DNA from: Escherichia phage IME267
Sequence record: NC_070983.1
Reading direction: 5' to 3' (one strand)
DNA: 64,000 nucleotides
Position 1 is the first letter of the stretch; each line of letters begins with the position of its first letter. The notes under the pieces are model-generated. The model did not search any database, was not told where the DNA came from, and saw nothing but the letters and a program-made list of their open reading frames with translations. The translations under genes were made by a program, and so were the position numbers. Shown piece after piece: positions 8,373-63,030 of this stretch.

Positions 8373-8896
8373 CAGTAGACAGTGTGACTGTTAGCCCTGC
8401 GTCTTTAGCAAGTCTAGAGACAGGGGCTACTCGGCAGTTCACTGCAAGCGCGGAGAAAAGTGATGGTTCTACCGAAACAACTGGCTTTACTTGGTCAGTG
8501 ACAGGAGGTGGTTCTATCACTCAGTCGGGTTTGTATACTGCTCCGAGTGCGTCTCAATCCACTGATGTATCCATTACTGCAACTTTAGAAGGTGTTTCTG
8601 GTACAGCAACCATTTCTGAAATTGTTGCTCCTGCTCCTACTATTGTAGCTAAGGGTCCAATTACGGGTAAAACTGGTGGTTCCTCCACTAATTTCACTAC
8701 CATGTTTACTGTAACTAATTCTGCTGCTGCGGATTACACGTTTGTTGTAACTCCTACAGAAGCTGGTACAGTAAGCGCCGCTGGTGCGTTAACCTTAGAT
8801 GCTGCTGCAAGTGGCGAAGTTACTGTTCAAGCAAGTTTGACAGCTGACCCGTCCATCAATGCAACATGCACTTTTACTGGTGTAACACCTGCTTAA
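7317..8896 (+). CDS. Major capsid protein, long form via predicted -1 frameshift, adding an Ig-like (Big_2-type) C-terminal domain
   Basis: Heptamer G_GGA_AAG at 8354..8360 in capsid frame; the -1 frame stays open to 8896 and encodes an Ig-like repeat. Confidence 0.55.
8354..8360 (+). other. Predicted -1 slippery heptamer GGGAAAG
   Basis: X_XXY_YYZ arrangement in capsid frame, 10 nt before the capsid stop codon. Confidence 0.55.
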
Positions 8897-46264: not shown

Positions 46265-46831
46265 TTAGTAAGACACATCACCACTGGAGTGGGACATGTT
46301 GCTCTTGACGAAGTAACAGAACTTGCCAAGACCTTCATTAATTTCTTGAAGCATACTCTGGTCCACTGGATAGGTGCACAAGTCTGAATCAAACTCATCC
46401 ATCTTCTCAATGATACACATAAGAGTCATGCACACGTCGGAAAGCATACCATCCATGTCGAGATCAGCGTTACCTTCTCGGAACCAAGCACGACCTAAAT
46501 AATTACTAGCAGTAGCATCCACTTTAACACAATGAAAGCGCATACGCTCTGCTATTCGGTCGCCTGCCTCACGAGCATAATCTTCTAGTTCATCGAACAT
46601 ACCATGAACACCTTGGAAACCGGCTCCAGAGACGTTCCAGTGGTAGTTCTTTGCTTTGATGTGTAGAAGTTCAAGGTTAGCCTGCACACCGCAAAGAATG
46701 TGCTCTAGGCTGTTACTGCTAATCAGTTTATTCATTCCCTCAAGACGAGAGATAGAAGAGTCAGCAGTAGAGAATGGGTTGCTAGAACCCACTCGTGTTA
46801 GTTCTGGTAAGTCGAAGACATTATTATGCAT
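46265..46831 (-). CDS. Dps or ferritin-like protein
   Basis: LLHIKAKNYHWNVSGAGFQGVHGMFDELEDYAREAGDRIAERM matches the Dps ferroxidase-site helix pattern. Confidence 0.6.
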   Translation of the reverse strand: MHNNVFDLPELTRVGSSNPFSTADSSISRLEGMNKLISSNSLEHILCGVQANLELLHIKAKNYHWNVSGAGFQGVHGMFDELEDYAREAGDRIAERMRFHCVKVDATASNYLGRAWFREGNADLDMDGMLSDVCMTLMCIIEKMDEFDSDLCTYPVDQSMLQEINEGLGKFCYFVKSNMSHSSGDVSY

Positions 46832-47171
46832 TAGGTGCATCCCCTTCTAAGTTAGTTGAATTAGCTACGTTACGAGCAATGTTGTCCATGACCTGCTGGG
46901 TAATAACAATGCAATTCTGTGGGTCTACAGACTTAGAACGCCCCATTTCAGGGTCATAGACTTTGACTCGCTTGGCTGTTGAGCCAGTAACTTGCAACAC
47001 TTTGAGAAGATAACCTTGGTTTCCAATAGACCATGCAACAACATCACGATTCTTGATATAACGACCAAGCATATCACGATGATAGAACTGCTGCATAACT
47101 TTAGCTTTGCTAATCTCTTCAGATGGCGGGGCCACTTTACTCAAATCTAACATAACTCTCTCCTGTTTCAT
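46824..47171 (-). CDS. Hypothetical protein
   Basis: 115 aa ORF. Confidence 0.45.
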   Translation of the reverse strand: MKQERVMLDLSKVAPPSEEISKAKVMQQFYHRDMLGRYIKNRDVVAWSIGNQGYLLKVLQVTGSTAKRVKVYDPEMGRSKSVDPQNCIVITQQVMDNIARNVANSTNLEGDAPNA

Positions 47172-47847: not shown

Positions 47848-48381
47848 TTATACACCCTTAGATGCAACTACACCATTACTGCCGTTGTATCGACCCTTCA
47901 CTGCATAAGAGTCATCACCAGCGTGAGAGTGTTCGAACATAACCATTTGACCAACACGCATCCCAGCACGAACTCGTAAGCTATGATTATGGGTAACGTT
48001 ATGAAATTCAAAGGTTAGTTTACTGCTGTTAAACCCTGCATCAGCCCAACCAGCATGGAGGTGGTTTAAACCACAACGAGCCATTGAGGAGCGAAGTACA
48101 AACAGGCTTGAGATGTTATCTGGAAGGTTAAACTCTTCCATTGAGTGCGCTAAGAAGAATTGCCCCGGAGTGATAACAATACCATCTTCAGGGATTTTTA
48201 CTTCTTTCCACTTGAGGTTTTCTTTAGCATCAATGTCAACAATTCCGTCAGCCTGTTCTTCAACAAGGATAGTATCACCAATACGGATATCCACGCTAGC
48301 AGCGTTAACATATTTATGCTCCGCATCTAAAAAGCCATTATCAATAACGCTGTGTAATTCTTGAGAACCTAAAAGACTCAT
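47848..48381 (-). CDS. dcd: dCTP deaminase
   Basis: LRSSMARCGLNHLHAGWADAGF matches the dCTP deaminase signature; AAGGAG RBS. Confidence 0.75.
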   Translation of the reverse strand: MSLLGSQELHSVIDNGFLDAEHKYVNAASVDIRIGDTILVEEQADGIVDIDAKENLKWKEVKIPEDGIVITPGQFFLAHSMEEFNLPDNISSLFVLRSSMARCGLNHLHAGWADAGFNSSKLTFEFHNVTHNHSLRVRAGMRVGQMVMFEHSHAGDDSYAVKGRYNGSNGVVASKGV

Positions 48382-49814
48382 GAGTTTCTGTCTCCTTGTA
48401 CAGATGATGCCAAATTATTAATCATGTTACGAGCTGTTTCACGAGATAATGTAACACCTGCTAAGTTGTTATGAAGCTCACCAGATAGCTCACGAGCAGC
48501 AGCTCGAAGTTCTGTACCAAGTGTAGTATCGGAGTGAGCCAAACCATTACGACGACTATAAGGTCGAGGAGCTTCGTTAGCGTCATTAGCCAATGATGCA
48601 AAACCAATATGAGCAGCTTCACGAGCCGCTATAGTTGACACTCGATCTTCCGTAGGGGTTGGCAAATCACCAACTTCTACACGTTCTATATCACCAGCAC
48701 GTAGACCCTGAACGACTGAGCTTACTGTTTCCCATGAACGACGAGAACGCTGTAAATCACCCATTGACGGAGAAGGAATAGGACGAGCAGTTCCTCCTTG
48801 GACATGCCATGTACGAGTATCCATTCCAGAAGAGCGTGCACTACCAAAACTGCCAGTGAAAGTGTCACGAGGTGCCATTGTAGGAGGAACTGCGAATCTT
48901 TCCTGTTGCCAAGAATCGCGTCTGTTAGTTCCCGGAGTCCAAGGCTGCGTGATTGCTTCAGCACCTATAGTGGTTAATCCGCTAGACCATTCTGTCTGTA
49001 GGTTAACTTCCTCGTCCAGATAACTACGACCCCTTTCCTGAGGAATGTTTAATATAGTTTCCATCATCTTCAGGGTATAATGACGACGCTGATTCTGATA
49101 TAAATTTACACCAGCCATAGGTCCAACTAAATCACTAATCAGGTGAACTTCTGGCTCACCGAAAGCTCCCATTGCAAGGTGCATATATTCGATAGAACTG
49201 CTATAAACTGCAACAGTTGCTTCAGGCCACTTTTTGTGAACATACTTCATTTCACGACTAGATACCACAGGAATGTCACGAGTGTATGACATTGCAAACA
49301 AACCTTCGTTTGACACATACATGTCATCAAGAGACATGAACCCCTGACAGATCATAGGAAAGCGACGGCTTAAAGTATCCATATCCAAAGGTAGATTAAT
49401 CATCATCTGGATTTTAACTTGATCAATCTCAATTTCCAGAATCTCTTGGAAAGTGAAAAGTGATTCAGTATAGGTTGTTCCACTGATAGGCTGAACTAGT
49501 CGAGATGTGACTTGAAGTCCTTTACTCTCTGTCCAAGACAAGAAGTTGTCAAGGAACAGTGCAGCATTACTTACGTTAGCAGGGCTGTTTTCCTGACGAG
49601 TGTTCCAACGAAACCCTCCTTGAACTAGGAAGATATCAACATCATTCGGAGTTCTATTTTGAAAGAACGTATCACGGATAGCACCACCTGCAATAACAGG
49701 GTAGATACCATCAGGAACTACGTTATCTCTGATCAGGTTACGAATCAGGTCAAGCCCTACACTGAGGGCTTCTCCTTCTTGAAGGTTTAATTCAGACAAT
49801 GGAATCTTAATCAT
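48378..49814 (-). CDS. Nucleotidyltransferase with CCA-adding/poly(A) polymerase-type head domain and low-complexity Ser/Arg/Thr-rich C-terminal half
   Basis: AGGAIRDTFFQNRTPNDVDIF fits the GGxxRD...DxD Pol-beta superfamily motif; ATG 49814 (track TTG 49829). Confidence 0.55.
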   Translation of the reverse strand: MIKIPLSELNLQEGEALSVGLDLIRNLIRDNVVPDGIYPVIAGGAIRDTFFQNRTPNDVDIFLVQGGFRWNTRQENSPANVSNAALFLDNFLSWTESKGLQVTSRLVQPISGTTYTESLFTFQEILEIEIDQVKIQMMINLPLDMDTLSRRFPMICQGFMSLDDMYVSNEGLFAMSYTRDIPVVSSREMKYVHKKWPEATVAVYSSSIEYMHLAMGAFGEPEVHLISDLVGPMAGVNLYQNQRRHYTLKMMETILNIPQERGRSYLDEEVNLQTEWSSGLTTIGAEAITQPWTPGTNRRDSWQQERFAVPPTMAPRDTFTGSFGSARSSGMDTRTWHVQGGTARPIPSPSMGDLQRSRRSWETVSSVVQGLRAGDIERVEVGDLPTPTEDRVSTIAAREAAHIGFASLANDANEAPRPYSRRNGLAHSDTTLGTELRAAARELSGELHNNLAGVTLSRETARNMINNLASSVQGDRNS

Positions 49815-49816
49815 TT

Positions 49817-50365
49817 CTACATTTTCCAATTTAGAGATGGGGGATTCTTATAATCAAATCCAGCCATTTGACAAAGACACATGTAAACTTTAACTGTCAA
49901 GTTAACGTCTTGCTCACAATAGGTGAACATGTCTTCAGTGAATGCGTCCCATGCCTCCTCCTGTTCTCCATAATCTCCTTTCAGCTCCCCAAGAAACTCG
50001 CCCCATTGTTTGAGGCCGTGACCACGAGGGCCATGTCTAGGGTCGCCTTTGGGGTATTCTGGACTATCACCAATACGGTCAGGCTTGAGATATCTACTCA
50101 GGCACAAAGTATCGAAGACGTTAAAGCGAAAAGGTATCACATGAGAATAAAACTTAAACAAAGCAGGAAGGTCAAAATCAATAATATTGTGACCTATTAC
50201 TACATCAGCTTCTTTCAGTTTGTGTAGTGCTTCTTCAATTTGGTGAGGGCGATACCCCCACCGCTCTCCAGATAATACATCAAATATCCAGATACACCAG
50301 ACATTCTGAATACCATCATAGAGATTATCCCCCTCGATATCAAACGCATACAGTTTCTTTACCAC
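49817..50365 (-). CDS. Stand-alone DnaQ-like 3'-5' exonuclease
   Basis: Exo I FDIEGD and Exo [11 protein letters not shown] motifs; GTG start with GGGGAGG upstream, overlapping the primase stop. Confidence 0.7.
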
Positions 50366-52184: not shown

Positions 52185-52391
52185 TTAGTAAAACGATCGT
52201 ATTTCTTCCCACACATCATCTTGCAAGTTTCTAAAACCCTGCAAGGTTTGCTTTGTTCTGTGAATAAATTCTTCAGAGTGCTTATCAGGTGTGAGCATAC
52301 TGACAAACTTTTCATAGCGATTAATCTTCCACCGCATCTTCAAGTAGTCAGATTCCAGCTTTCTTAACTTCTGCCTGTCAGTTACTGTCAT
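52185..52391 (-). CDS. Small hypothetical protein (start uncertain)
   Basis: Internal ATG 52391 minimises overlap with the upstream gene; track start 52487. Confidence 0.3.
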   Translation of the reverse strand: MTVTDRQKLRKLESDYLKMRWKINRYEKFVSMLTPDKHSEEFIHRTKQTLQGFRNLQDDVWEEIRSFY

Positions 52392-52809
52392 CCTTCTCAC
52401 CTGCCAGATATGCTGTCCAGTCACCAGATTCAACCAGAACATCTTGTTCTTCGTCGATGTGATAAATCCACGCTTCCACAGTTTCACCGCTGTCTAATAA
52501 TACTGGAATCAGTGTACGCTTGTAAAAGGTGTATGGGTTATCATTACCACGATGACCTTCCAGACCGTCATATGGACCTTCCAGACCAGCTTGGGTTGTT
52601 TCAAAGACTTCTACACGAACAGGCTTACCATTGCTGTCATGCTCCAAAGATACACTTGGGAAGTATGCTGTGCAATACTGATACAGGTTACAGTTGTTTA
52701 CTGTCCACCCTTCACCAATAGACACACCACCTGCACGAGCATTGATAGCGTGGTTGTGTTGACCTTTACGAAGAGAACCATACGTTGCAACTAATACTTT
52801 ATCAGACAT
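52378..52809 (-). CDS. Gamma-glutamyl cyclotransferase-like (AIG2/GGCT fold) protein
   Basis: N-terminal VATYGSLRKGQHNH matches the YGS/TLxxG signature of the family. Confidence 0.6.
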   Translation of the reverse strand: MSDKVLVATYGSLRKGQHNHAINARAGGVSIGEGWTVNNCNLYQYCTAYFPSVSLEHDSNGKPVRVEVFETTQAGLEGPYDGLEGHRGNDNPYTFYKRTLIPVLLDSGETVEAWIYHIDEEQDVLVESGDWTAYLAGEKDDSN

Positions 52810-52813
52810 TACA

Positions 52814-53011
52814 TTACCTTTTGTTTAAAATTTCTTTTGTACAAGAAGTCCCGTTACACACGAGAACTGTTTGAGTTATAGAATCGACAACTGTTACATG
52901 GCTGCCGCATTGAGTTATGATTTGACCTCTCCCTGAATCTTTAGAGATGCATTCATCAGCGGCGATCGCTGACACACTGAATAAGGAGAGTAAAAATAGA
53001 ATCTTTTTCAT
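52814..53011 (-). CDS. Small secreted Cys-containing protein
   Basis: Signal peptide MKKILFLLSLFSVSAIA followed by 4 Cys in 45 residues. Confidence 0.4.
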   Translation of the reverse strand: MKKILFLLSLFSVSAIAADECISKDSGRGQIITQCGSHVTVVDSITQTVLVCNGTSCTKEILNKR

Positions 53012-53017
53012 GGCTGC

Positions 53018-53434
53018 TTACCAATCATGTTGGAAACCAGAATATCCAGAGAAGATGATTGATCGGATTGGCTTTTCAGGGAATTCTTCAAAACATCCCT
53101 TAATGGCTTTCTTGGTTTCATCAGAAATTGACTCTTTTTCACCAAACCAATATTCTTCAAAAATATCAGAGAAGATATAAGTTCGGTATCTTTCCAAGTC
53201 ATAAAAACCTTCCACTGCACTTGTAACAGCTCTACTAATTACACTTGAAGCTACAGGAAATAAGTCACCGTGTTCCAGAAACAAGCACCAACGATCAAAG
53301 AGAGGAATCTCTTCATCTTTCAGAAGACTTTCTAACTCTTCCTTTGCCTCTTTCTTGTGCTTCTCAAAGAGGTTTTTGGAATACTCTACATCTAAGATAC
53401 GACTTTTAAACATATCCAGTTTATTATTAACCAT
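53018..53434 (-). CDS. Hypothetical protein
   Basis: 138 aa ORF. Confidence 0.45.
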   Translation of the reverse strand: MVNNKLDMFKSRILDVEYSKNLFEKHKKEAKEELESLLKDEEIPLFDRWCLFLEHGDLFPVASSVISRAVTSAVEGFYDLERYRTYIFSDIFEEYWFGEKESISDETKKAIKGCFEEFPEKPIRSIIFSGYSGFQHDW

Positions 53435-53491
53435 TTTACAACCTCTAGTTAAATTCGAACTAGCCTCCTCTTTCGAAGAGGCTAAAGCAAA

Positions 53492-53677
53492 TTATTCTAC
53501 TTCGAAGTGTTTGATCACACCAGTCAGTACATCAGATTGGAATGTACCAACTAGCTCTGTACCTCGGAAGAAGTTAACACTTGTTCCAAGTGATTCAAAG
53601 CGATCTGCTTGAATGTCCAGAGATTGAATATTTCCTTCTGCTGACATTGTACGAAACATGATTGTGTATTTATTCAC
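53492..53677 (-). CDS. Small hypothetical protein
   Basis: 61 aa, ATGA overlap with the upstream gene. Confidence 0.35.
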   Translation of the reverse strand: MNKYTIMFRTMSAEGNIQSLDIQADRFESLGTSVNFFRGTELVGTFQSDVLTGVIKHFEVE

Positions 53678-53916
53678 AGACTTGTTACTCCCTTATCTGC
53701 TTGTGCAATTGCGATGATACGCTCAGCACATTCCATTGAATATTTATCACCTCGTTTGAGGAAGGTGATGATTGCAGAGAACTGATTACCAATCACTCTC
53801 TTATTTGTGATACCAAACTCTTCACAGAGTTGGTTGATAGCTTTACGAGAGCCTACAATCAGAGGCTCTTTTTCTTCGGTCATTCCACGGCTGATCAAAT
53901 CTTCGATAGACAACAT
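53674..53916 (-). CDS. Small hypothetical protein
   Basis: 80 aa ORF. Confidence 0.4.
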   Translation of the reverse strand: MLSIEDLISRGMTEEKEPLIVGSRKAINQLCEEFGITNKRVIGNQFSAIITFLKRGDKYSMECAERIIAIAQADKGVTSL

Positions 53917-53942
53917 TACAAATTCCTTTTTGTTTAATTTAA

Positions 53943-55178
53943 TTACAGAGTTACTGCTACTTCGCTACCTTCAACATTGACAGACTCTAACTTGCGAGGG
54001 TTATGAATCTGGACTGGATTGACCGGAACGTTCCAACCACTGCGGTAGAAGTTACGACCATCACAGAACAGGATGACATTGGCAGACATTGCATTCGGTT
54101 GCAGGTTGTTGTGGACATGACGGATATTTGCAATCCAGTAGCCACGAGACAAAGTGTAGCCAGTAGGTGCATTACGAATAGTTTGAGTATTCATCTGACC
54201 TTCCAGTTGCATTTCTTCAGGAACCACATCAACTGAATCAATCGGCTGTGCTACTTGTCCTTCCAGTGCAAAGTTTTCATCATCAGCACTTTCAATATCA
54301 TCCACCAACTCACCGTCTCCATCTTCAATCGGAGTCTGGTAAACCACTTTATACTGAGGAGTATAGAGAGGGTTCTGAGCTTTAACAAACTCAAGAATGT
54401 TATGACGGTAGGTATCCAGAGTTGTACCAGTCAGGCCCGGTGCTGTATTAACTTCCAGTACCCACGCTTCTTGACCTTTGGTGATAATATCAACTGCACC
54501 GAAATCCAGACCTATTGATTCAACAGCTTTCACTGCATTGATCAGAGAGGCGTCATTCGGAGCATCTGTGAAGGAGCTTGAGTAAACCCAGCCAGTGTGG
54601 TGATTACGAATATCTTCACGATAGTTAGGGTCTTCGCGATAACCATTGCGACGAATCTTCTTCTGAACATAGGTGATTACACCTTTGAACACATGGACAC
54701 GCCACTCACGACGTGGGCCTTGAATGCCTTTAGTGTACAGTTCAGCTCGACCAAGACCATCACCCGGTTCTACAACAACAATGCCCGAACCAGAGTGACC
54801 AGTCAGCTCATGGCGCTCATACACAATATTACCAGTGTTTGACCACTCTTGAGCAGTCTCTTGAACATCTGTGTATTCCACAGTTTTAACACCTGCTTGG
54901 TCCATCACGCTGAAAGCACGACGTTTGTTCGCTGCCATATGTAAGGCTGCGGTACGGTTAAGGACGGTTGCAGAACCAAAGAATGATTCAGGATAGCGAC
55001 GGTTCCCGTAGTTAACAACCACATCACCTTCACGAGAACGCCAGCGGCTATTCTCTGAAAGAAGACCCATCACGTTAGCATTGATTCGTTCATCACGGAT
55101 AGTATCACTGATAGCAGATACTAGAGCGTTAACAGAATCAGACGGGCCATACGGAAGAACACGGATACGAGTAGTCAT
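53943..55178 (-). CDS. ATP-grasp ligase (RimK-like) with C-terminal extension
   Basis: GAVDIITKGQEAWVLEVNTAPGLTG matches the ATP-grasp C-terminal motif (D...E.N..PG). Confidence 0.65.
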   Translation of the reverse strand: MTTRIRVLPYGPSDSVNALVSAISDTIRDERINANVMGLLSENSRWRSREGDVVVNYGNRRYPESFFGSATVLNRTAALHMAANKRRAFSVMDQAGVKTVEYTDVQETAQEWSNTGNIVYERHELTGHSGSGIVVVEPGDGLGRAELYTKGIQGPRREWRVHVFKGVITYVQKKIRRNGYREDPNYREDIRNHHTGWVYSSSFTDAPNDASLINAVKAVESIGLDFGAVDIITKGQEAWVLEVNTAPGLTGTTLDTYRHNILEFVKAQNPLYTPQYKVVYQTPIEDGDGELVDDIESADDENFALEGQVAQPIDSVDVVPEEMQLEGQMNTQTIRNAPTGYTLSRGYWIANIRHVHNNLQPNAMSANVILFCDGRNFYRSGWNVPVNPVQIHNPRKLESVNVEGSEVAVTL

Positions 55179-55180
55179 TT

Positions 55181-55402
55181 TTAGATACCTTTTAGTTTAA
55201 GAATTTCGTTACGACAGGATTGAATTTTAGCTTCGATTGCCCAATACTCAGCGAACATTTCGTCTTCTTGGGCATCGCTTGGAGAGTCGATTAAGTTAAA
55301 AGCAAACGGATACAGCTTTCGCTGCTCCGTTACCAGTTGTTGAAGTCGGAGTTGTTGATACTCCAGCATTGTCAGGTGAGGCTTAGCTCCCTTGCTTGAC
55401 AT
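55181..55402 (-). CDS. Small hypothetical protein
   Basis: Track start 55411 is TTG; ATG at 55402. Confidence 0.4.
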   Translation of the reverse strand: MSSKGAKPHLTMLEYQQLRLQQLVTEQRKLYPFAFNLIDSPSDAQEDEMFAEYWAIEAKIQSCRNEILKLKGI

Positions 55403-55616
55403 GAGGCTCAACTTTAATCCCCTTCATTTTAACATAGTCAGCCAACACGTTATTGATAACGGTTGGAAAAGGGATTTCTACTGGAGAGTCAACCAGCTTC
55501 CCAATACCTTCTTGCATCCACTTCTGGATTGCTCGGAGGTTATCACATCCTGTGCTTGTCATCGGAATACGGCGGGTAGTTACCACGTTATCCAACATCA
55601 GTTTACGAACTTCCAT
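55383..55616 (-). CDS. Small hypothetical protein
   Basis: 77 aa ORF. Confidence 0.35.
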   Translation of the reverse strand: MEVRKLMLDNVVTTRRIPMTSTGCDNLRAIQKWMQEGIGKLVDSPVEIPFPTVINNVLADYVKMKGIKVEPHVKQGS

Positions 55617-55627
55617 AACTATACCTC

Positions 55628-57661
55628 TTAGTGTTTACCTTTACAGTAATCTGAATTACAGATCACCCTGTTTTCTTTGTTCAGTGAGCAAGTTTCTGCA
55701 TCACGCCACGGAATTTGTTTATAACAGACTGCACAAAACCCAATTGAAGTCCAGAGGGCTTTTGTAAACTCAGCTGTTCGTTGTCCATCGTAACTGACAA
55801 CTGTTTTTCGGAGAGAGGTTGACTTTTCTGGAAATGTCTCCGCTTTCTCAGCGGGTACCTCCTTTGGGGCATTCTTTGGACCATAAACAGAGATGGCATA
55901 AGTATCACCACCACGTTTTTCCAAATACGAATTAGGAACATCTGCAAGTGTGATGTCCCCTGAACGTTTTGCTGAGCTGACCATTACAATCATACGGCTA
56001 AGCATACGTTCATCAACACGAACAGCTACTTCAGGACGACGTGGGTTGGTTGTGTCTACTGCTTTAGTCCAAATATAACCTTCAGATAGAGTAACATTCT
56101 TTACTTTATCTTTGATTTCTTTGGAGCAGATATAACAAACGTCTTCACCACGAAGTTTACTCATTTCGTTGTCAAACTCGAAATCAGTCTTGACTTCACC
56201 ACAGATAGCACATACACCCAAAGGCACATCTTCTTCCTCTTCAGAGGTTTTAGATAACGCTTCGAAGCATTCTGGATGCCAGTATGCCTGATAAGCAAAC
56301 ACAGCCTTACGAGCATCTTTCCAGTCAATGTGCTTATCACAACCACCACAGTCACCATGAGAGTGAGATTCCCAGAACTTACGAGTGACTTCTACACCAT
56401 TCTTAGTGATGAAGGAGTCCTCTGCATCAAAAGGGATATCATCATCAAAATCAGCAGTAGTGCTTTGAGGCTCCTTATCTGTAGCATCAACAAACAGCCC
56501 TGAAGTTAGTACGAGGCGAATCATACTGTCCACTTCGGAGATACAAGCAATCGTCCCGCGATATACTACCTTTGGGTTTTCAAGAGCCTTAAGATATTCA
56601 TCTTTGGCTACGTTGTGAACATCCCCTTCGACATACTCTTGAGCTTTATCATCGTAGATGTAACCAACCATCTTACCACGATCTGTGTTGTTATAAGCAT
56701 GGAACTCGTGAGGAATAATATCCACACGACCATCACGACGATAAGGAAGACCACGATCGGCAGCCAGTTTGTTCTGGTCTTCAATCGCTTTACGACGACG
56801 AATGTCTCCGCTTGTCACGCCGGGCTTGTCGTCTTTGTTTCCGTAAATGTCGCTTGTGCTGCTGCTTGATTTGTTTGTCTGTTGGTTCTGATAAAGAGAG
56901 GAGTTCGAGTAATAGCCGCCCCAGCGACTCGTTACCGTAAAAACCGGAAGCGTGTGCTCCACCTCTTGAACCAGAGTCATACGACTGTTAGACACATCAA
57001 AGATATACTCAGTTCCCACTTTACATTCGAAGTGGTCATTGATACGGTTCTTATGGGACTTAGAACGCTCTAAAATCCACATAAGCATAGCTTCTTCAGA
57101 AGCTCCAAACCAATCCAAACCACAGCGGGCTAGGTGGAAAGGACGCTCATCATTACGGATAATGTGAAGCGTGTTGTCTTTAGCATCATGCCAAATCAAA
57201 GTGAATGCACCATCCAGTTTTTGGATAGTCTCTGCTGCTCCAATGGTGTTAATTGAGTGGCAGATGTTTTCACTATCAACTTCGAAACGCTTACTGTCAG
57301 GAAGGAGATCTTGATCTAACAGGGTTCCATTATGAACCAGAGTAATATCCCCGTGAGTAAATGGGTGAGCATTTCGAGCATTGACAGCCCCACGAGTGGC
57401 ATGTCGGCTGTGACCAACAATCCACGAAGGAGGAACTACGTAGTTCGTAAGCCCTTTGGTAATATTTGTATATTCTGTCTGGAGCATAAAAGCATAAGAA
57501 GGAAGAGCTTCTTTATAAGAGAAGACTTGCTTTTCACCTTTACGCTGACCAAACACACCAGTTGAGTGCTGTCCACGGAAAACACCAGCATACAGAAGTT
57601 GGTTGAAAATGTCCAAATCTGCTGAGGTCATGTTGCCGCCAGCTAATACGATACCACAAAT
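55628..57661 (-). CDS. Class II (Ntn-type, PurF-like) glutamine amidotransferase domain protein with Cys-rich C-terminal region; predicted AUU start
   Basis: In-frame upstream of the track ATG (57631): TAG-AAA-ATT-TGT... encodes CGIVLAGGN, then RGQHSTGV, GHSRHATRGAVNARNAHPF, LVHNGTL as in PurF. Confidence 0.65.
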   Translation of the reverse strand: MCGIVLAGGNMTSADLDIFNQLLYAGVFRGQHSTGVFGQRKGEKQVFSYKEALPSYAFMLQTEYTNITKGLTNYVVPPSWIVGHSRHATRGAVNARNAHPFTHGDITLVHNGTLLDQDLLPDSKRFEVDSENICHSINTIGAAETIQKLDGAFTLIWHDAKDNTLHIIRNDERPFHLARCGLDWFGASEEAMLMWILERSKSHKNRINDHFECKVGTEYIFDVSNSRMTLVQEVEHTLPVFTVTSRWGGYYSNSSLYQNQQTNKSSSSTSDIYGNKDDKPGVTSGDIRRRKAIEDQNKLAADRGLPYRRDGRVDIIPHEFHAYNNTDRGKMVGYIYDDKAQEYVEGDVHNVAKDEYLKALENPKVVYRGTIACISEVDSMIRLVLTSGLFVDATDKEPQSTTADFDDDIPFDAEDSFITKNGVEVTRKFWESHSHGDCGGCDKHIDWKDARKAVFAYQAYWHPECFEALSKTSEEEEDVPLGVCAICGEVKTDFEFDNEMSKLRGEDVCYICSKEIKDKVKNVTLSEGYIWTKAVDTTNPRRPEVAVRVDERMLSRMIVMVSSAKRSGDITLADVPNSYLEKRGGDTYAISVYGPKNAPKEVPAEKAETFPEKSTSLRKTVVSYDGQRTAEFTKALWTSIGFCAVCYKQIPWRDAETCSLNKENRVICNSDYCKGKH

Positions 57662-57738
57662 TTTCTAATCCACCTGAAGGGTAAACCCTTTCATCTAATT
57701 AACCTTTAAATGCGCCCTGTATAAGAGCGCCCGTTGTG

Positions 57739-58839
57739 TTACAGCAGTCGTTCTAATTGCATTTCCAGATGGTCTGGAATATAACCAGTGACGTTATCAT
57801 CACTGCTACCTGATTCACGCATCAATGCAAACATGTGACGAATTTCACGAACCGTTGCGATTCGAGTGCTTTCAATCTGAGGGGTGTAGTAGGTCATGAT
57901 CTCTTCGTAGACACTGTTGGCATTACCGCGCACATATCCCAAGAAACCATAGAAGTCATTCATATCACGTAAGTTGATAAGGACTTCACCATCAGGGCCA
58001 GTCTGTTGCACACGAACACGACCAACCAAAGTCACAGATTGCTCACGACAGAAGAGAATATCACGAGCAAGACGATACCCTTCAGTGAGATCACTGTCTC
58101 TTGGAGTATAGTCTAGGGGTAGATGTTGAATCATAGGAGCGAAGCGCAGCTCATTCAACTTCTCAACATAAGCTTCATTGTCTAAATCTGCATATTCAAC
58201 AGCCAGTTTCTTGAGAACCAAGAAGCGGTTGACCAGATTCAGAAGTTGGCTCTTTTTCCACTTCGGCTCTGAGATACGGAACTCAACAGAACCAAATTGA
58301 GATAGAGGCAAAAGATTAAGGGAGGTATATTTATCCCAGCTATTAACAAGAGAGTGGAAGAAAGCTTCCCCGTCTCGGTTGAACGCTGACGAAGCATTCA
58401 TAACTTGTGCTTGAACGACAGCAAAAGCTGGACAGAAGTTGCTACGATAGCGATGGTATCCAGAACATTTGAACATCATCTTTTCATAGAACGTCCATCC
58501 AAGAATAACTTTCTTAAGGATATTACTATCAGCGTCACGCATATCCATATGAACGTGAGTGGAGCAGCGCCAAGTTCCCTCGGCTCCAGAATCCTGTACT
58601 GCTTCACTCAGATTGTTAATAGCACGAAGTAATTCTTCACCGTTGTAAGGTCGTGCACACACTAATTCACAACCATCACGAAGAGAGCCATCTTCAGTAC
58701 AAACCCACATATCAGCGTCAATATCAGTTGTACCTTCGACTTCTAACTCAATACCAACACCACACTGAAAAGCAATACTTGGATGCGGTTCAGATAAGCG
58801 AGGGTTACGGTATCCAAAAACTTGTGCTACGGTTGTCAT
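57739..58839 (-). CDS. Glutamine synthetase-fold carboxylate-amine ligase (amidoligase / GCS2-like)
   Basis: N-terminal QCGVGIELEVEG resembles the TLGIELEMQVV first-strand motif of YbdK-type ligases. Confidence 0.5.
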   Translation of the reverse strand: MTTVAQVFGYRNPRLSEPHPSIAFQCGVGIELEVEGTTDIDADMWVCTEDGSLRDGCELVCARPYNGEELLRAINNLSEAVQDSGAEGTWRCSTHVHMDMRDADSNILKKVILGWTFYEKMMFKCSGYHRYRSNFCPAFAVVQAQVMNASSAFNRDGEAFFHSLVNSWDKYTSLNLLPLSQFGSVEFRISEPKWKKSQLLNLVNRFLVLKKLAVEYADLDNEAYVEKLNELRFAPMIQHLPLDYTPRDSDLTEGYRLARDILFCREQSVTLVGRVRVQQTGPDGEVLINLRDMNDFYGFLGYVRGNANSVYEEIMTYYTPQIESTRIATVREIRHMFALMRESGSSDDNVTGYIPDHLEMQLERLL

Positions 58840-59462
58840 AATGATTCCACCAACTCTACATTATATGATGACAGGTCTGAAGAAATATGCTTGAACTTCT
58901 CCAGAAGGTTTAAAGATTGACGACCATTGTCGCCATAACCAGCTTCAAGAAGCACGTTTCCAACGTAAGCTCCTTTGTAATAAACTTTTCCATCGACAGG
59001 GTTGATATAGATGAAACGAGTAACCAACCCTTCAAACTCTGGATTAAACAGGTTGTACACCAAATCACCCGGAATCGAACGTCCGAGAGAAGGTGGAGTA
59101 CCACGAAGTTTATTCCCCATCAATCCTTTAGCTCGCTGACGAACAGGGTTGATATGGGTCCAGCTCACCATGTTATTACCATGCTGAAGGTATCCTACAT
59201 CTGGAGACTCCAGAATGAGGCTGTGATCAAACACTGGGATATTACTAACAATCTGACGTTCAAACTGACCTTCGGAGTTTTTAGTCCAGCGTTCCGCCTC
59301 AAACACTAAAGACATTTCAGCGTCGTGTGAGTAGTCGTCAATATCAAAGTTACCTTGCTGACGAACATCAAGCACATATAGAGGGAGGTTTTTACCATCA
59401 GGTGATCGCTGAGCAATCCATGTTCCACAATAATAGTGTTGAAAATCTCTTAACAAGCTCAC
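58836..59462 (-). CDS. Hypothetical protein in ligase cluster
   Basis: 208 aa; ATGA overlap with the amidoligase gene. Confidence 0.45.
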   Translation of the reverse strand: MSLLRDFQHYYCGTWIAQRSPDGKNLPLYVLDVRQQGNFDIDDYSHDAEMSLVFEAERWTKNSEGQFERQIVSNIPVFDHSLILESPDVGYLQHGNNMVSWTHINPVRQRAKGLMGNKLRGTPPSLGRSIPGDLVYNLFNPEFEGLVTRFIYINPVDGKVYYKGAYVGNVLLEAGYGDNGRQSLNLLEKFKHISSDLSSYNVELVESL

Positions 59463-59471
59463 AATATCACC

Positions 59472-60278
59472 TTATACAATCTGGAGTTTAGAGGAGAATT
59501 TATCCGCTTCTTTAACATCGTTACTGTTGATGATGTTGTGAAGCTTTTCAATTGGAAGGCGAGAGTGAAGTGACATCAATACTTCCATATCACAGCCTTG
59601 AACAACCTTATCAACTTGCTCATAAACAAACTTGCGGGTTGACTTCTCGCCAATCCAGAAGTTAGAAAGAGAACGATATTCAATGCCGTAATCCTTGTAA
59701 CGAATAGCAGAAGCCTTTCCGTATAACTCTTTACGACGAGTGTCTTTATCCATGATCACAGCTGGCAAGGACAGGAAGTAATCACACAACACACCCAACA
59801 TCATTTGAGTCTGACGACTAATTTCCAGCGTACCAGCGACGCCAAGGTGAACGTGACCGCCAGCAGTACGCAGACCTTTGTCTGTCGCTACTGGTGAAGG
59901 GTTCTTTTGTCCAGTGAAGGCATTGAAATCAGGAGTACAACCAAATACAAAGGCTGACGGATGGAAAGATTCCAGCTCTTCTGAAGTGAACACATGAGAG
60001 CTAATCCCAAGTGCTGCCTCCATGCCACGTTCATTGAGAACTTTGTTAGTCAGATCAATACCACGCTGAATGTTATCATTAAACGCTTCAAACCCTTTCT
60101 GTGGGTTAATATCAAACTCGGCCAGAACGTTGTCTTCTTGAAGACGAACATCAGGAGCCAGATCAATTTTATTATCTTTAGAACAGCCCAGCTTACCAGC
60201 CACAGAGGTGATAATACCGGAAGCAGTACGAACAAACATTTCAGGGTCAGAGCCAATAAGGAAAGCGCGCTTAGTCAT
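59472..60278 (-). CDS. Hypothetical protein, possible second GS-fold ligase
   Basis: ATG 60278 with GGAG upstream (track GTG 60323); N-terminal FLIGSDPEMFV weakly resembles the ligase first-strand motif. Confidence 0.3.
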   Translation of the reverse strand: MTKRAFLIGSDPEMFVRTASGIITSVAGKLGCSKDNKIDLAPDVRLQEDNVLAEFDINPQKGFEAFNDNIQRGIDLTNKVLNERGMEAALGISSHVFTSEELESFHPSAFVFGCTPDFNAFTGQKNPSPVATDKGLRTAGGHVHLGVAGTLEISRQTQMMLGVLCDYFLSLPAVIMDKDTRRKELYGKASAIRYKDYGIEYRSLSNFWIGEKSTRKFVYEQVDKVVQGCDMEVLMSLHSRLPIEKLHNIINSNDVKEADKFSSKLQIV

Positions 60279-61221
60279 TGTAATACTCCACGAGTTCATC
60301 AAAAAGGGAAACAACACGAGCACCAGCTTCTTCTGGTGTCATTGAGGAAGGTACTGCTTGCATCAGACGTTCGATAAAACTTTGAACAGTAATTCTGTCC
60401 ATACGCTGATCTAATACTTCTCGCTTGTGGCCTGCACAAGTTGACCAGAGACGTAACCACTCACTCATACTCTCATAATGGTCAGGGTCTTGGTCACGAC
60501 GACGTGCCATACGACGGAGAACTCCATCATTATGGTTTCGTACATAACCATCTCGGTTGTCATCAACACCGAATACATTCTGAACCCATACGTTTTCAGA
60601 AAATTCATCAGTGGTGCAAATTAATGGCAGAAATGCAATTGCACTCATGTCGCCATCAAAATAAGTCGCTGCTGACTCATCGGTTGAGTCTACGTCATTA
60701 CTATAACACCAGCGACCAAAGAAGTTACGACTTAAACCAGCTAAGCGTAGAGCTAAACCGATTCGTTGTCGCTTAAGCAACTCTTCCTTGTCTTGTACGC
60801 CTTCCTGAAGGAACTCCATTCCATTAAAATCACCATCCAAATAGCTACGGATGGTCATTAGTCCAGTAAACACCTTATCTGCTGGATGGTTTCGAAGGTT
60901 CACGGCAATAGAGTTCACCGAAGTGACAGAGAACATATCTTTATAGCAAGACATTGAGTTAAAAATGTCTGTTGCTTCAACTAAAGCTCTTTCGATATCT
61001 TTAGCTGGTACGCCATAAAAATTGTGAGGCCAGAAGTTAATAACTTCAATTTCTGAAGTTCTGTCACGAAGGCTTGTTCGGTTACGACTTTCACCGTTAA
61101 TGTCTGTAACAGAATACATGTGCATACAGTTAAAAGTACCAAAGCAAGCTCTTCCTTTGAACACTGACTCACCGAAATCCTCTGCCGGTGTTACCGGAGC
61201 AATCGATGCGGAGATTGACAT
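60271..61221 (-). CDS. Hypothetical protein in ligase cluster
   Basis: 316 aa ORF. Confidence 0.45.
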   Translation of the reverse strand: MSISASIAPVTPAEDFGESVFKGRACFGTFNCMHMYSVTDINGESRNRTSLRDRTSEIEVINFWPHNFYGVPAKDIERALVEATDIFNSMSCYKDMFSVTSVNSIAVNLRNHPADKVFTGLMTIRSYLDGDFNGMEFLQEGVQDKEELLKRQRIGLALRLAGLSRNFFGRWCYSNDVDSTDESAATYFDGDMSAIAFLPLICTTDEFSENVWVQNVFGVDDNRDGYVRNHNDGVLRRMARRRDQDPDHYESMSEWLRLWSTCAGHKREVLDQRMDRITVQSFIERLMQAVPSSMTPEEAGARVVSLFDELVEYYND

Positions 61222-61229
61222 ATTCGCCT

Positions 61230-62447
61230 CTATTTATTAAAGAATAATTTTTCCATAATGGTTTCCCACTCTTCTGAGGGGAGGGTTGAGAACCCGTTTC
61301 CGTGAAGCCTGTTTGTCATGCAACTAATAATATTGTACATGTTGTAGCTTCGGGTGGATTCTGTTCCATTGTTCCAGTTATAACCGAAAACAATTTTATC
61401 GAAGGAGGTTTTATCCGTAGTTACTTCTCGGATAAACTCAACCAAGAGCGATTTCTCTGTGATGACCGCACGTTCACCATCTGGCAGATTGCAATACTGA
61501 GGAAGAAGGATTGGTAAGAACATCGAATTGTTCACTCGACAATCACGAACACCTTCACTGCGATAGATTAGGCTTGAGAAGTCTTCATCACGCAGGTGTC
61601 CTTCACCTTCAGTGTATTCACACTGTCGCCACTTGGTCTGGCGAGGCTCAATCATTGTACTACCAACGCCTACTGTATACAGAGACGCTTGGAAAATACA
61701 TGAATCGTAATCATTCCCTGTTAAAGCAACTTGCTCGTTGCCGAACACATCCACTGAAGAGTTAATCAGTCGGCTGAATGCAAGAGAGGCTAGTGGAGAC
61801 CAACCTTTCTTATACATCTTGTTCAGCATTTCATACACAGCAGATTTTTCATCATCTGTATAGAATGTACGATTCAGCATCAGATAGAACAGAGCGCGAT
61901 CAGCAGGACAACCATCAGTACAAACACCCATGAATCCTACTTCATGCCATACCAGACATGAGTCAGAATCTTTATCCATGAATGCTTCAAAGGCTTCCAT
62001 TACAGCCCTGTCAGTAACATCAGGACGGTTGTTTTCTTCTGCCCATGTTTCTACATGAGAAGGAGGACGAGGGTCTCCATTCTCCACCCCTTCGCGGAAA
62101 TATTGAGTGGTAATAGGCTTTTTATCACCATAACGTTTTACACCATAAGCGGGAAGGTGTGTACCAGAGTTCCAGATGTACTTAATTTCGGACATAGGCA
62201 TCATGTTTTCGAGAACGTTCTCTTCAGCAGTGCCTTGACGAACCATCATATTTTCACTCCACACCTTAATGCGGATATTCCAGCCGTAGTTGCTGTCATA
62301 CGTGTTATAATAATCAGGATCACCATCTTCATCTTCATCATAATCACCACCCTGATAGTAACCTGCTTTCAGGAAACCATAACAAGGAGGCCAGACGGTT
62401 ACAACATCATCTGATTCTTTCCAGCTTTGAAGTGTTACAGGGAACAT
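61230..62447 (-). CDS. Hypothetical protein in ligase cluster
   Basis: 405 aa ORF with AGAGGT RBS; acidic Tyr/Asp-rich N-terminal segment. Confidence 0.45.
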   Translation of the reverse strand: MFPVTLQSWKESDDVVTVWPPCYGFLKAGYYQGGDYDEDEDGDPDYYNTYDSNYGWNIRIKVWSENMMVRQGTAEENVLENMMPMSEIKYIWNSGTHLPAYGVKRYGDKKPITTQYFREGVENGDPRPPSHVETWAEENNRPDVTDRAVMEAFEAFMDKDSDSCLVWHEVGFMGVCTDGCPADRALFYLMLNRTFYTDDEKSAVYEMLNKMYKKGWSPLASLAFSRLINSSVDVFGNEQVALTGNDYDSCIFQASLYTVGVGSTMIEPRQTKWRQCEYTEGEGHLRDEDFSSLIYRSEGVRDCRVNNSMFLPILLPQYCNLPDGERAVITEKSLLVEFIREVTTDKTSFDKIVFGYNWNNGTESTRSYNMYNIISCMTNRLHGNGFSTLPSEEWETIMEKLFFNK

Positions 62448-62458
62448 CTTTTACCTCT

Positions 62459-62821
62459 TTACTCTGCTACCAAAAGGCTCAGAGATTTGCGAATGTAGTC
62501 AATACTACGGAAGTTTCGATAACTCTCTTGGAAGCGCATCTTTTCAAACTCTGCTTCCTGAAGCTCTACCTCTGCTGCTTTATATCCTGATAAAGCTAAA
62601 CTTACCACATCCTGAGGTAAGGTATTACGACGGCGAATAAGATATTTATTCGCTTTTAGTTTACCTTGTGCACGAGCCATTTTGGCCTTTGCCGCCTTGA
62701 TACCATGAGAAATCCAAAGCAGTTGCTGTTTCAGATCTTCCTCATCCATACCACCTAAATCATTTGCTACTTTATGCAGCGTAGACAGGTTCACATGGCC
62801 TTTAATGGGGCGTAGGTTCAT
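62459..62821 (-). CDS. Hypothetical basic helical protein
   Basis: 120 aa with AGGAGA RBS. Confidence 0.45.
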   Translation of the reverse strand: MNLRPIKGHVNLSTLHKVANDLGGMDEEDLKQQLLWISHGIKAAKAKMARAQGKLKANKYLIRRRNTLPQDVVSLALSGYKAAEVELQEAEFEKMRFQESYRNFRSIDYIRKSLSLLVAE

Positions 62822-62985
62822 AACTTCTCCTGTTTGTCACATTGATTGGTTAGCCAGTTGTAAGACCCACTGTTGTTCTTGCTTAACTCGCAAGATGCAA
62901 AAGAGTACATCCTGACAAACCCCACAGTGGCTAAGCAAATAAAGATTGCTGCCAATAAGAATTTAGCTTTCAACTTATTATCCAT
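62818..62985 (-). CDS. Small membrane or secreted protein (55 aa, below track threshold)
   Basis: Own translation: MDNKLKAKFLLAAIFICLATVGFVRMYSFASCELSKNNSGSYNWLTNQCDKQEKL; AGAGGT RBS; ATGA overlap downstream. Confidence 0.4.
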   Translation of the reverse strand: MDNKLKAKFLLAAIFICLATVGFVRMYSFASCELSKNNSGSYNWLTNQCDKQEKL

Positions 62986-63004: not shown

Positions 63005-63030
63005 TAAAAAAGGACTCTCCTAAGAGAGCC
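63005..63030 (-). terminator. Putative rho-independent terminator
   Basis: ggctctc-ttag-gagag(t)cc hairpin followed on the - strand by TTTTTT. Confidence 0.4.

Follow-up and report, generated by a model that had tools for sequence, protein, structure and literature searches.

A transient gamma-glutamyl handle is used in the PuuA/PuuD pathway (putrescine), the EgtA/EgtC pathway (ergothioneine), and the BtrJ/BtrG pathway (butirosin). RimK glutamylates ribosomal protein S6, and PafA and Dop tag proteins in pupylation. Among phages, the closest described system is the amidoligase gene neighbourhood of phiEco32, whose computational description is credited to Iyer, Abhiman, Burroughs and Aravind (2009, Mol Biosyst 5:1636) in PMC10580990 and PMC11318856. 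We analysed a gene cluster at positions 52,185 to 62,985 of a 64,000-nucleotide stretch of Escherichia phage IME267 (NC_070983.1; this whole stretch is referred to below as the 64-kb window), which a preliminary description had read as a multi-enzyme cluster for making or cutting amide bonds. Judged from its sequence, the cluster is a phiEco32-type phage amidoligase module. Its genes, their order, their defining domains, and the subfamily are the same as in the phiEco32 neighbourhood, and nothing essential differs; this genome adds an insertion encoding a DUF7020 protein and a secreted peptide between the gp78 homologue and the gene for gamma-glutamyl cyclotransferase (GGCT). The cluster is not new. 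It is already known bioinformatically and is routinely annotated in genome papers: Pfam PF14395 is named after the phiEco32-like ligase, and GenBank/RefSeq records of relatives carry the labels gamma-glutamyl cyclotransferase, glutamine amidotransferase, amidoligase, and COOH.NH2 ligase, with the ATP-grasp gene labelled as ATP-grasp or as "ribosomal protein S6 glutaminyl transferase". Searches of the literature turned up no paper that characterises the cluster experimentally, in agreement with the preliminary description, which knew of no experimentally characterised phage pathway of this make-up; the module itself has been on record since 2009.

The 11-kb region was 99.3% identical in nucleotide sequence to Escherichia phage 4E8 over its full length and 98% identical to vB_EcoP_SU7 (Suseptimavirus, Gordonclarkvirinae; hereafter SU7). 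Identity to Kuravirus phages was ~74-80%, and other Gordonclarkvirinae relatives fell between 74 and 99%. Because of this nucleotide identity to 4E8, SU7, and Kuravirus, the sequence places the source phage among the C3-morphotype coliphages of the phiEco32 group (Suseptimavirus/Kuravirus-like). All genes of the cluster lie in the same orientation on the minus strand and are close-packed: stops and starts overlap by 4-14 nt at 62818-62821, 60271-60278, 58836-58839, 53674-53677, and 52378-52391, and the other gaps are mostly 2-11 nt. The cluster is syntenic gene for gene with phiEco32 genes 76-90, upstream of the primase/helicase gene, and lies among DNA-replication genes, in a block that belongs to the middle class in phiEco32. 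The co-oriented arrangement and the primase-helicase neighbour reported in the preliminary description were thus both borne out, the open reading frames (ORFs) being found at the coordinates given there.

The cluster is predicted to encode three intact ATP-dependent amide ligases from two superfamilies. The catalytic core of the RimK-like ATP-grasp protein covers approximately residues 1-290 and is followed by an acidic linker and a small C-terminal beta domain. The Pfam RimK model matched the single sequence weakly, under the cut-off (E 1.9e-3, 18.3 bits; cut-off 21). A profile of eight divergent phage ATP-grasps matched solved RimK proteins and alpha-L-glutamate ligases over the whole core, with E-values of 7e-7 to 7e-6 (best matches 7qys, 7e-7; 5zct, 2.5e-6; 4iwx, 2.9e-6). 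Among NCBIfam models, MptN (2.2e-9) and the RimK family (3.8e-6) ranked first, with scores under the family cut-offs (TIGR00768, 26.5 vs 143.4; MptN, 36.8 vs 350; PRK10446, 20.5 vs 331). Eight divergent homologues shared the invariant residues K85, R122, S129-G130, E158-R160-H162, N192, D230, and E242-N244, and the nucleotide- and Mg-binding residues were invariant in the alignment of phage homologues. The conserved Lys, the Glu-x-Asn Mg ligands, and the flexible Gly-rich loop of a RimK-type core are thereby accounted for. Compared with RimK, MptN, and CofF, the protein aligned over ~210 residues with solved RimK and kept the ATP- and Mg-binding residues, whereas the C-terminal acidic linker and beta domain were unaligned and the scores remained far below the cut-offs. 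Secondary similarity to D-Ala-D-Ala ligases was also seen.

The other two ligases were assigned by Pfam to the glutamine synthetase (GS)-like carboxylate-amine ligases. PF12224 matched Amidoligase_2 with E 3.1e-8 (34.2 bits; cut-off 22), and PF14395, "phage phiEco32-like COOH.NH2 ligase type 2", matched the COOH-NH2 ligase with E 2.6e-8 (33.8 bits; cut-off 25). In eight divergent homologues each, the residues G29-E31-E33-E35, H95, H97, R130, E186, and R188 of Amidoligase_2 and Q47, D49, E54, H142, H144, and E200-Y201-R202 of the COOH-NH2 ligase were invariant.

The class II glutamine amidotransferase, of the N-terminal nucleophile (Ntn) type, was recognised by GATase_6 (PF13522) in the ORF 55628-57631 with E 2.6e-14 (53.8 bits; cut-off 27). 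The ORF list starts this gene at the ATG at 57631; the true start is an ATT (57659-57661) ten codons further upstream. ATT-TGT-GGT-ATC directly follows an in-frame stop and is preceded by a Shine-Dalgarno-like GGTGGA. Translation from the ATT yields MCGIVLAGG..., in which the nucleophile Cys forms the mature N-terminus, and the protein aligns from residue 1 with the N-terminal domain of GlmS. As in the ligases, catalytic residues were conserved in eight divergent homologues. The phiEco32 amidotransferase has the same ATT start (about 8522-8524 of its retrieved sequence), and an MCG[LIV] N-terminus was present in 59 of 74 viral-contig homologues. The rare start codon may throttle expression of the amidotransferase. 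ORF callers limited to ATG, GTG, and TTG miss the first 10 residues of the protein, and with them the nucleophile. The C-terminal half consists of a beta domain and repeated CxxC Zn-ribbons, and neither Pfam nor NCBIfam revealed a fused phosphoribosyltransferase (PRTase), SIS, Asn synthase, or GltB acceptor domain. In the absence of a fused synthase domain the protein is not an orthologue of PurF, GlmS, or AsnB, and without a fused acceptor domain it must work with partners or as a hydrolase. Purine biosynthesis (PurF, PurD, PurK) was also considered for the cluster and was rejected, since scores were far under the equivalog cut-offs and there was no PRTase domain.

GGCT belongs to the AIG2/GGACT-like proteins. 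It matched Pfam GGACT (PF06094) with E 8.9e-16 (59 bits; cut-off 22.8) over profile positions 2-119 of 120, and contained YGSL at residues 10-13 and a segment of the type VEVFE...LDxLEG. In other phages, a protein of ~218 amino acids (aa) of the Peptidase_C26/class I amidotransferase type (C26; PF07722, 4.6e-18), with a GICRGHQ nucleophile elbow and an HPE motif, takes this place. Across 68 core-bearing viral loci, 31 had GGCT only, 27 had Peptidase_C26 only, one had both, and nine had neither. GGCT and C26 have unrelated folds, and their outcome is the same: the gamma-glutamyl group is taken off an amine. Because the two alternate across loci, gamma-glutamyl amide cleavage appears to be a required, integral step of the pathway. 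The two types of loci differed further: the X family described below was present in 23 of 32 GGCT-type loci and in none of the 27 C26-type loci, and the ATP-grasp protein was longer in GGCT-type loci.

Taken together, the profile searches upheld all four enzyme classes named in the preliminary description and gave no support to purine biosynthesis, which had been mentioned there as an ordinary pathway that might explain the genes. The eight-homologue profile (7e-7) and NCBIfam agreed with the RimK-like motif read at 53943..55178, PF12224 (3.1e-8) with the GS-like ligase at 57739..58839, and PF06094 (8.9e-16) with the GGCT/AIG2-like YGSL protein at 52378..52809. A second GS-like ligase at 59472..60278, offered as a possibility, proved real (PF14395, 2.6e-8), and the amidotransferase start at 57661 was correct, the ATT codon giving MCGIV as in phiEco32. 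The term "PurF-like" held for the N-terminal Ntn domain (GATase_6); it failed for the remainder of the protein, which lacks a PRTase, SIS, or Asn-synthase domain.

A tblastn search with the COOH-NH2 ligase retrieved 309 phage records, including Gordonclarkvirinae, Grimontviridae (7-11, Privateer, Vp_R1), LUZ24-like Bruynoghevirus/Vicosavirus, Zobellviridae (PA11, CW02), and Pseudoalteromonas and Vibrio podophages. Scanning IMG/VR with a profile gave at least 536 viral contigs. The arrangement of the cluster is far beyond chance, since it is conserved in these phage records and contigs. In 79 retrieved viral loci, the order COOH-NH2 ligase, C208, Amidoligase_2, class II amidotransferase, ATP-grasp was nearly invariant (Amidoligase_2 in 78 loci, amidotransferase in 74, ATP-grasp in 68, COOH-NH2 ligase in 67, and C208 in 62), and a primase/helicase usually came next where the flank was long enough. 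Among 100,044 prokaryotic species genomes (one genome each), the signature families (PF14395, C208, X) occurred at only 26 loci. Those with enough flank were mostly on short contigs of metagenome-assembled genomes, had the same core genes, and in several cases adjoined a phage primase. The signature families are essentially phage-restricted.

The fifth core protein, C208, is always encoded between the two GS-like ligase genes and carries no catalytic signature. Its most conserved segment is a basic loop at residues 104-118 (I-N-P-V-R-Q-R-x-K-G-L-x-G-N-K), which is predicted to be disordered. Only R108, K163, and G168 were invariant in eight lineages, and K163 was replaced by Arg in the representative of a marine C208-like family. 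C208 is probably a scaffold, adaptor, or acceptor. The 405-aa X protein had 28 invariant residues, including C22, D183-R184, D248, H284, and R286, a conservation pattern that looks enzyme-like. Its confident predicted structure, the only one modelled for an X member, matched no solved fold. The profile of the 316-aa protein aligned by hhalign with a 7-11 gp106-like family (95.5%, E 1.5e-8), and this family in turn with the 405-aa protein (80%) and with a marine family of ~300 aa (75%) that is encoded immediately upstream of the COOH-NH2 ligase. Because these profile-profile links run via the 7-11 gp106-like family, the 405-aa and 316-aa proteins are read as remote paralogues within one phage-specific X family. 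Sequence and profile searches of the PDB with C208 and with the 405-aa and 316-aa proteins gave no meaningful match.

We tentatively propose that the cluster encodes a gamma-glutamyl-handle ligation pathway whose acceptor is not DNA but a small amine-bearing molecule or a short peptide that is produced in the infected cell. In this scheme the proteins would jointly carry out ATP-dependent ligation and might form a complex that C208 and the extra beta and Zn-ribbon domains hold together. A GS-like ligase would activate the gamma-carboxylate of glutamate and join it to the acceptor amine, giving a gamma-glutamyl amide. Further amide bonds would come from the other GS-like ligase and from the RimK-like ATP-grasp protein, which most plausibly place glutamate or another amino acid on a free carboxylate. 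The Ntn domain, with its Cys1, would either pass ammonia from glutamine to a ligase or hydrolyse an amide. GGCT would act last, taking off the gamma-glutamyl handle as 5-oxoproline and freeing the amine. With PuuA/PuuD, EgtA/EgtC, and BtrJ/BtrG the cluster would share the logic of a GS-like or ATP-grasp ligase combined with an enzyme that removes the gamma-glutamyl group; GGCT, Peptidase_C26, or an Ntn class II amidohydrolase fills this second role, depending on the phage. The sequence relation to these pathways is at the superfamily level only, and unlike them, the cluster contains no detected oxidase, dehydrogenase, carrier, or other tailoring enzyme.

Several points weigh against this proposal. 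For either GS-like ligase, a profile search of PDB sequences found nothing below E 0.1, solved structures of GS, glutamate-cysteine ligase (GCS), and PafA included. The hhalign probability between the Amidoligase_2 and COOH-NH2 ligase families was 0.2%, in shallow alignments (Neff 2.5); the putative GS fold of both proteins comes from the Pfam models. The alternation of GGCT and C26 is largely clade-structured and so reflects few independent events, and the two occurred together in 3 of the 26 loci of the prokaryotic genome collection. The non-enzymatic C208, together with the Zn-ribbon and beta domains of the enzymes, hints at protein-protein or protein-substrate recognition. Finally, families for small-molecule biosynthesis are not usually confined to phages, and the confinement seen here would suit a macromolecular target encoded by the phage at least equally well.

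Such a target is central to a possible, though doubtful, alternative, in which the ligases put glutamate, oligo-glutamate, or a peptide tag on a host protein or on a phage protein, C208 being the obvious candidate. GGCT or C26 and the Ntn hydrolase would then trim or reverse the tag, and the acidic tagged protein could serve as a DNA mimic or regulator during replication. The presence in the core of a non-enzymatic SH3/Tudor-like protein with a basic, conserved loop predicted to be disordered is consistent with tagging, as are the extra Zn-ribbon and beta domains on the enzymes, the restriction of the families to phages, and the identity of the closest solved ATP-grasp relatives as RimK proteins. 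The cluster also has two GS-like ligases, as the PafA/Dop system does, and GGACT-type enzymes cut gamma-glutamyl-epsilon-lysine. However, none of the small ORFs named for the cluster, nor any of their homologues, has a Pup-like GGQ or GGE ending; these ORFs include no LysW-like carrier and show no conserved C-terminal Glu or Gln, and C-terminal Glu was not enriched in the cluster (22 of 160, 13.8%, vs 80 of 657, 12.2%, outside). The few invariant residues of C208, with Arg at position 163 in the marine representative, also count against tagging, and the requirement of GGCT for glutamate with a free alpha-amino group suits free gamma-glutamyl amides better than protein-linked ones. Pupylation itself is alike in its two GS-like ligases, its amide hydrolysis, and a possible gamma-glutamyl-lysine bond; it differs in that the cluster has no proteasome context and no Pup-like protein among the ORFs just named, and PDB searches with the GS-like ligases found no PafA or Dop match. 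It is unlikely that the cluster modifies the cell envelope (a murein peptide or receptor) and thereby blocks superinfection by other phages, even though murein stem peptides hold a gamma-glutamyl bond and can be amidated, and the ATP-grasp protein is secondarily similar to D-Ala-D-Ala ligases. This idea, credited for phiEco32 to Iyer et al. 2009 in PMC10580990 and PMC11318856, has a computational basis only. In these strictly lytic phages the cluster is grouped with the genes for replication, and inspection by eye, with no predictor run, found no signal peptide or membrane anchor in the translations of the core enzymes. Homologous clusters are also present on contigs binned with archaea and with bacteria of the candidate phyla radiation, as well as in viruses assigned to Poseidoniales archaea (PMC11706807), which lack murein, although these host assignments are uncertain. 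Little credence can be given to the view that these are auxiliary metabolic genes boosting nitrogen, glutamate, or glutathione metabolism of the host during infection. Annotations frequently call the cluster "AMG" or "moron". Such a role has been put forward for Poriferisphaera phage ZRK32, a carrier of the cluster that reportedly promotes growth on nitrate and ammonium (PMC10945688); this support is indirect. The near-absence of the signature families from cellular genomes argues against a borrowing from host metabolism, no enzyme reached the family cut-offs of GlmS, PurF, AsnB, RimK, or EgtC, and auxiliary metabolic genes do not typically form a strictly collinear set of five that includes a non-enzymatic partner.

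Hypermodification of DNA or nucleotides, with an amino acid or gamma-glutamyl group appended to a base before or after replication, would explain the strong resistance to restriction-modification (RM) reported for Gordonclarkvirinae, and we consider it very unlikely. The BASEL study found these phages remarkably RM-resistant without a known modification pathway and did not mention the cluster. The 64-kb window contains 26 EcoRV, 8 EcoRI, 6 EcoKI, and 116 EcoP1I sites, so depletion of sites alone cannot explain the resistance, and the cluster adjoins genes for primase-helicase, DNA polymerase, dCTP deaminase, and ThyX. However, the adjacency to the replisome genes and the same primase are common to all lineages and may be inherited synteny, and the thymidylate synthase is an ordinary ThyX. 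The complete cluster is present in the Vicosavirus Rembedalsseter, whose native DNA showed no modification motif when compared by nanopore with whole-genome-amplified DNA, in a study that flagged probable hypermodification in other phages (PMC11780129). Sites observed and expected in the 64-kb window were 0 vs 86 for CCWGG, 0 vs 18 for CTGCAG (PstI), 0 vs 17 for GAGCTC (SacI), 1 vs 10 for CCATGG, and 1 vs 7 for GGTACC, and GATC and GGCC were at about half; GATATC (26), AAGCTT, CATATG, EcoKI, and EcoP1I sites were not depleted. This avoidance suggests selection by EcoRII-type and a few other type II systems. Because CCWGG, CTGCAG, and GAGCTC are absent and GATC and GGCC are halved, the DNA appears to be exposed to restriction enzymes, which argues against its being modified. 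Among the scanned cluster ORFs, Pfam detected no hydroxymethylase, 5-HMUDK kinase, aGPT-Pplase, DpdA/QueC, or Mom-like protein. The cluster therefore resembles known DNA hypermodification pathways (adducts of 5-hydroxymethyldeoxyuridine or 5-hydroxymethyldeoxycytidine, 7-deazaguanines, Mom) in its neighbourhood of replication and nucleotide genes and in the unexplained RM resistance, whereas their defining enzymes were undetected and a cluster-bearing phage shows no detectable modification. Of the three roles suggested in the preliminary description (a peptide-like small molecule, protein glutamylation, and nucleobase modification), the last is thus disfavoured by the Rembedalsseter nanopore data and the site avoidance. 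A broader version, which we regard as decidedly unlikely, is that the phage-restricted set of seven families (C208, the X proteins, the three ligases, GGCT or C26, and the Ntn amidotransferase) attaches a tag or polymer built from glutamate to the genome during replication or to a phage protein, and so causes the near-complete resistance of Gordonclarkvirinae to type I, II, and III RM systems. If this were true, it would be a new anti-restriction chemistry, and X would be a new enzyme fold.

Against these alternatives, the gamma-glutamyl-handle pathway remains our tentative preference. The features of the cluster are listed in Table 1.

Table 1. Features of the amidoligase cluster and of its boundary in the 64-kb window
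Feature	Position	Strand	Basis or remark
~68-aa protein (phrog_10819) between GGCT and primase-helicase	52185..52391	-	start per SU7/phiEco32 gp76 annotation
Gamma-glutamyl(amine) cyclotransferase, AIG2/GGACT-like, 143 aa, accessory gene	52378..52809	-	PF06094
Variable insertion: DUF7020 protein (138 aa) and 65-aa Cys-rich signal-peptide protein	52814..53434	-	
61-aa protein (phrog_8591); Gordonclarkvirinae only	53492..53677	-	
phiEco32 gp79 homologue, 80 aa	53674..53916	-	75% identity, E 7e-47
RimK-like ATP-grasp ligase, 411 aa, core gene	53943..55178	-	profile, NCBIfam, alignment
~74-76-aa protein (phrog_13464), start uncertain; Gordonclarkvirinae only	55181..55411	-	
77-aa protein after amidotransferase; conserved in Gordonclarkvirinae, 7-11-like, and LUZ24-like phages (14 loci)	55383..55616	-	
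Class II (Ntn) glutamine amidotransferase or amidohydrolase, 677 aa, core gene	55628..57661	-	Pfam, start codon
Amidoligase_2, GS-like carboxylate-amine ligase per Pfam, core gene	57739..58839	-	PF12224
C208 core protein, 208 aa (phrog_4877), SH3/Tudor/BAH-like beta barrels	58836..59462	-	
COOH-NH2 ligase type 2, GS/GCS-like per Pfam, core gene	59472..60278 (ORF to 60323)	-	PF14395
X-family paralogue, 316 aa (phiEco32 gp87 equivalent)	60271..61221	-	hhalign
X-family protein, 405 aa (phiEco32 gp88 equivalent)	61230..62447	-	
120-aa protein (phrog_11370); Gordonclarkvirinae only	62459..62821	-	
Small hydrophobic protein, 55 aa, first gene past terminator; Gordonclarkvirinae only	62818..62985	-	
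Terminator-like hairpin and T-run	63013..63030	-	upstream (transcription-proximal) cluster boundary; SU7 annotates a terminator at the equivalent position

Some genes in the span are not part of the pathway: the preliminary description of a multi-enzyme cluster holds for the enzyme core and not for the gp79 homologue and the DUF7020 island. The protein at 53674-53916 is the gp79 homologue. The phiEco32 gp79, a middle protein, has two effects: it inhibits sigma70-RNA polymerase, and it activates transcription that depends on gp36 (PMC8948821). Its counterpart here is embedded between the ATP-grasp and GGCT genes and is no pathway member. The DUF7020 protein matched its Pfam family with E 2.7e-20, and the 65-aa Cys-rich protein has a clear signal peptide (MKKILFLLSLFSVSAIAADE...). 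This insertion is present here and in ECBP2 and absent from SU7 and Bas87. It is not in the conserved module and may be a moron carrying a secreted or periplasmic factor.

The exact phiEco32 gp36 promoter motif (TAATGTATA) was not found on the minus strand within the cluster, and a scan for sigma70-type promoters gave results below shuffle expectation; the promoter driving the cluster was therefore not pinpointed. In SU7, an HNH homing endonuclease gene (10663-11133 of that genome) lies between the genes for the 316-aa X protein and the COOH-NH2 ligase, and this insertion is absent from the present phage (equivalent site ~60271-60323). UFV-P2 has a different HNH gene between Amidoligase_2 and the amidotransferase. 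Homing endonucleases thus insert recurrently into the amidoligase cluster.

Neighbours of the cluster include genes for Dcd, ThyX, PhoH, a ferritin-like protein, and a metallophosphoesterase. A 191-aa protein of the replication block (46265-46840, minus strand), called "DNA binding protein" in relatives, contains a ferritin/Dps-like domain (PF00210, 8e-8). A 483-aa protein labelled "nucleotidyltransferase" in relatives is encoded at 48378-49829 (minus strand), flanked by the genes for the exonuclease subunit of DNA polymerase and for dCTP deaminase, and had no Pfam match at E 1e-3; the BASEL authors suggest this gene pair as a possible route of DNA modification.

In three unrelated lineages, Salinivibrio phage CW02 (1-8100) and the loci L076 (5400-11700) and L077 (1-10700), the cluster is interspersed with six to nine tandem small paralogues. 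These proteins have 60-125 aa and are possibly SH3-like, judged by eye from their "MKFKVGD..." starts, with conserved C-terminal tails (LLEENV, EEVLYEI, SSLDYM..EDK.II). The tails LLEENV and EEVLYEI were considered as modification sites and rejected, since back-translation suggests that the start signals of the next, overlapping paralogue (Shine-Dalgarno sequence and ATG) lie within them; one example, ...GAG GTG TTG TAT GAA GTT TAA, inferred from the protein and not read from the DNA, holds GAGG and ATGAAGTTT. The tail motifs probably reflect constraint at the nucleotide level and are not evidence of tagging.

To the existing description, the present analysis adds the distribution of the collinear five-gene core, the alternation of GGCT and C26, the non-enzymatic nature of C208, the paralogy of the X proteins, and the identity of the gp79 homologue. 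The module takes up about 9 kb (roughly 12% of the genome) in this lineage, and with isolates from at least four families it is among the most widespread multi-enzyme gene sets of tailed phages that lack an assigned function. The recently isolated Gordonclarkvirinae that infect E. coli K-12 (BASEL Bas86-93) make the cluster genetically tractable. Once solved, its function would probably bring to light a new metabolite, or a new protein modification, that serves in the conflict between phage and host; the X family may in addition prove to have a new enzyme fold.

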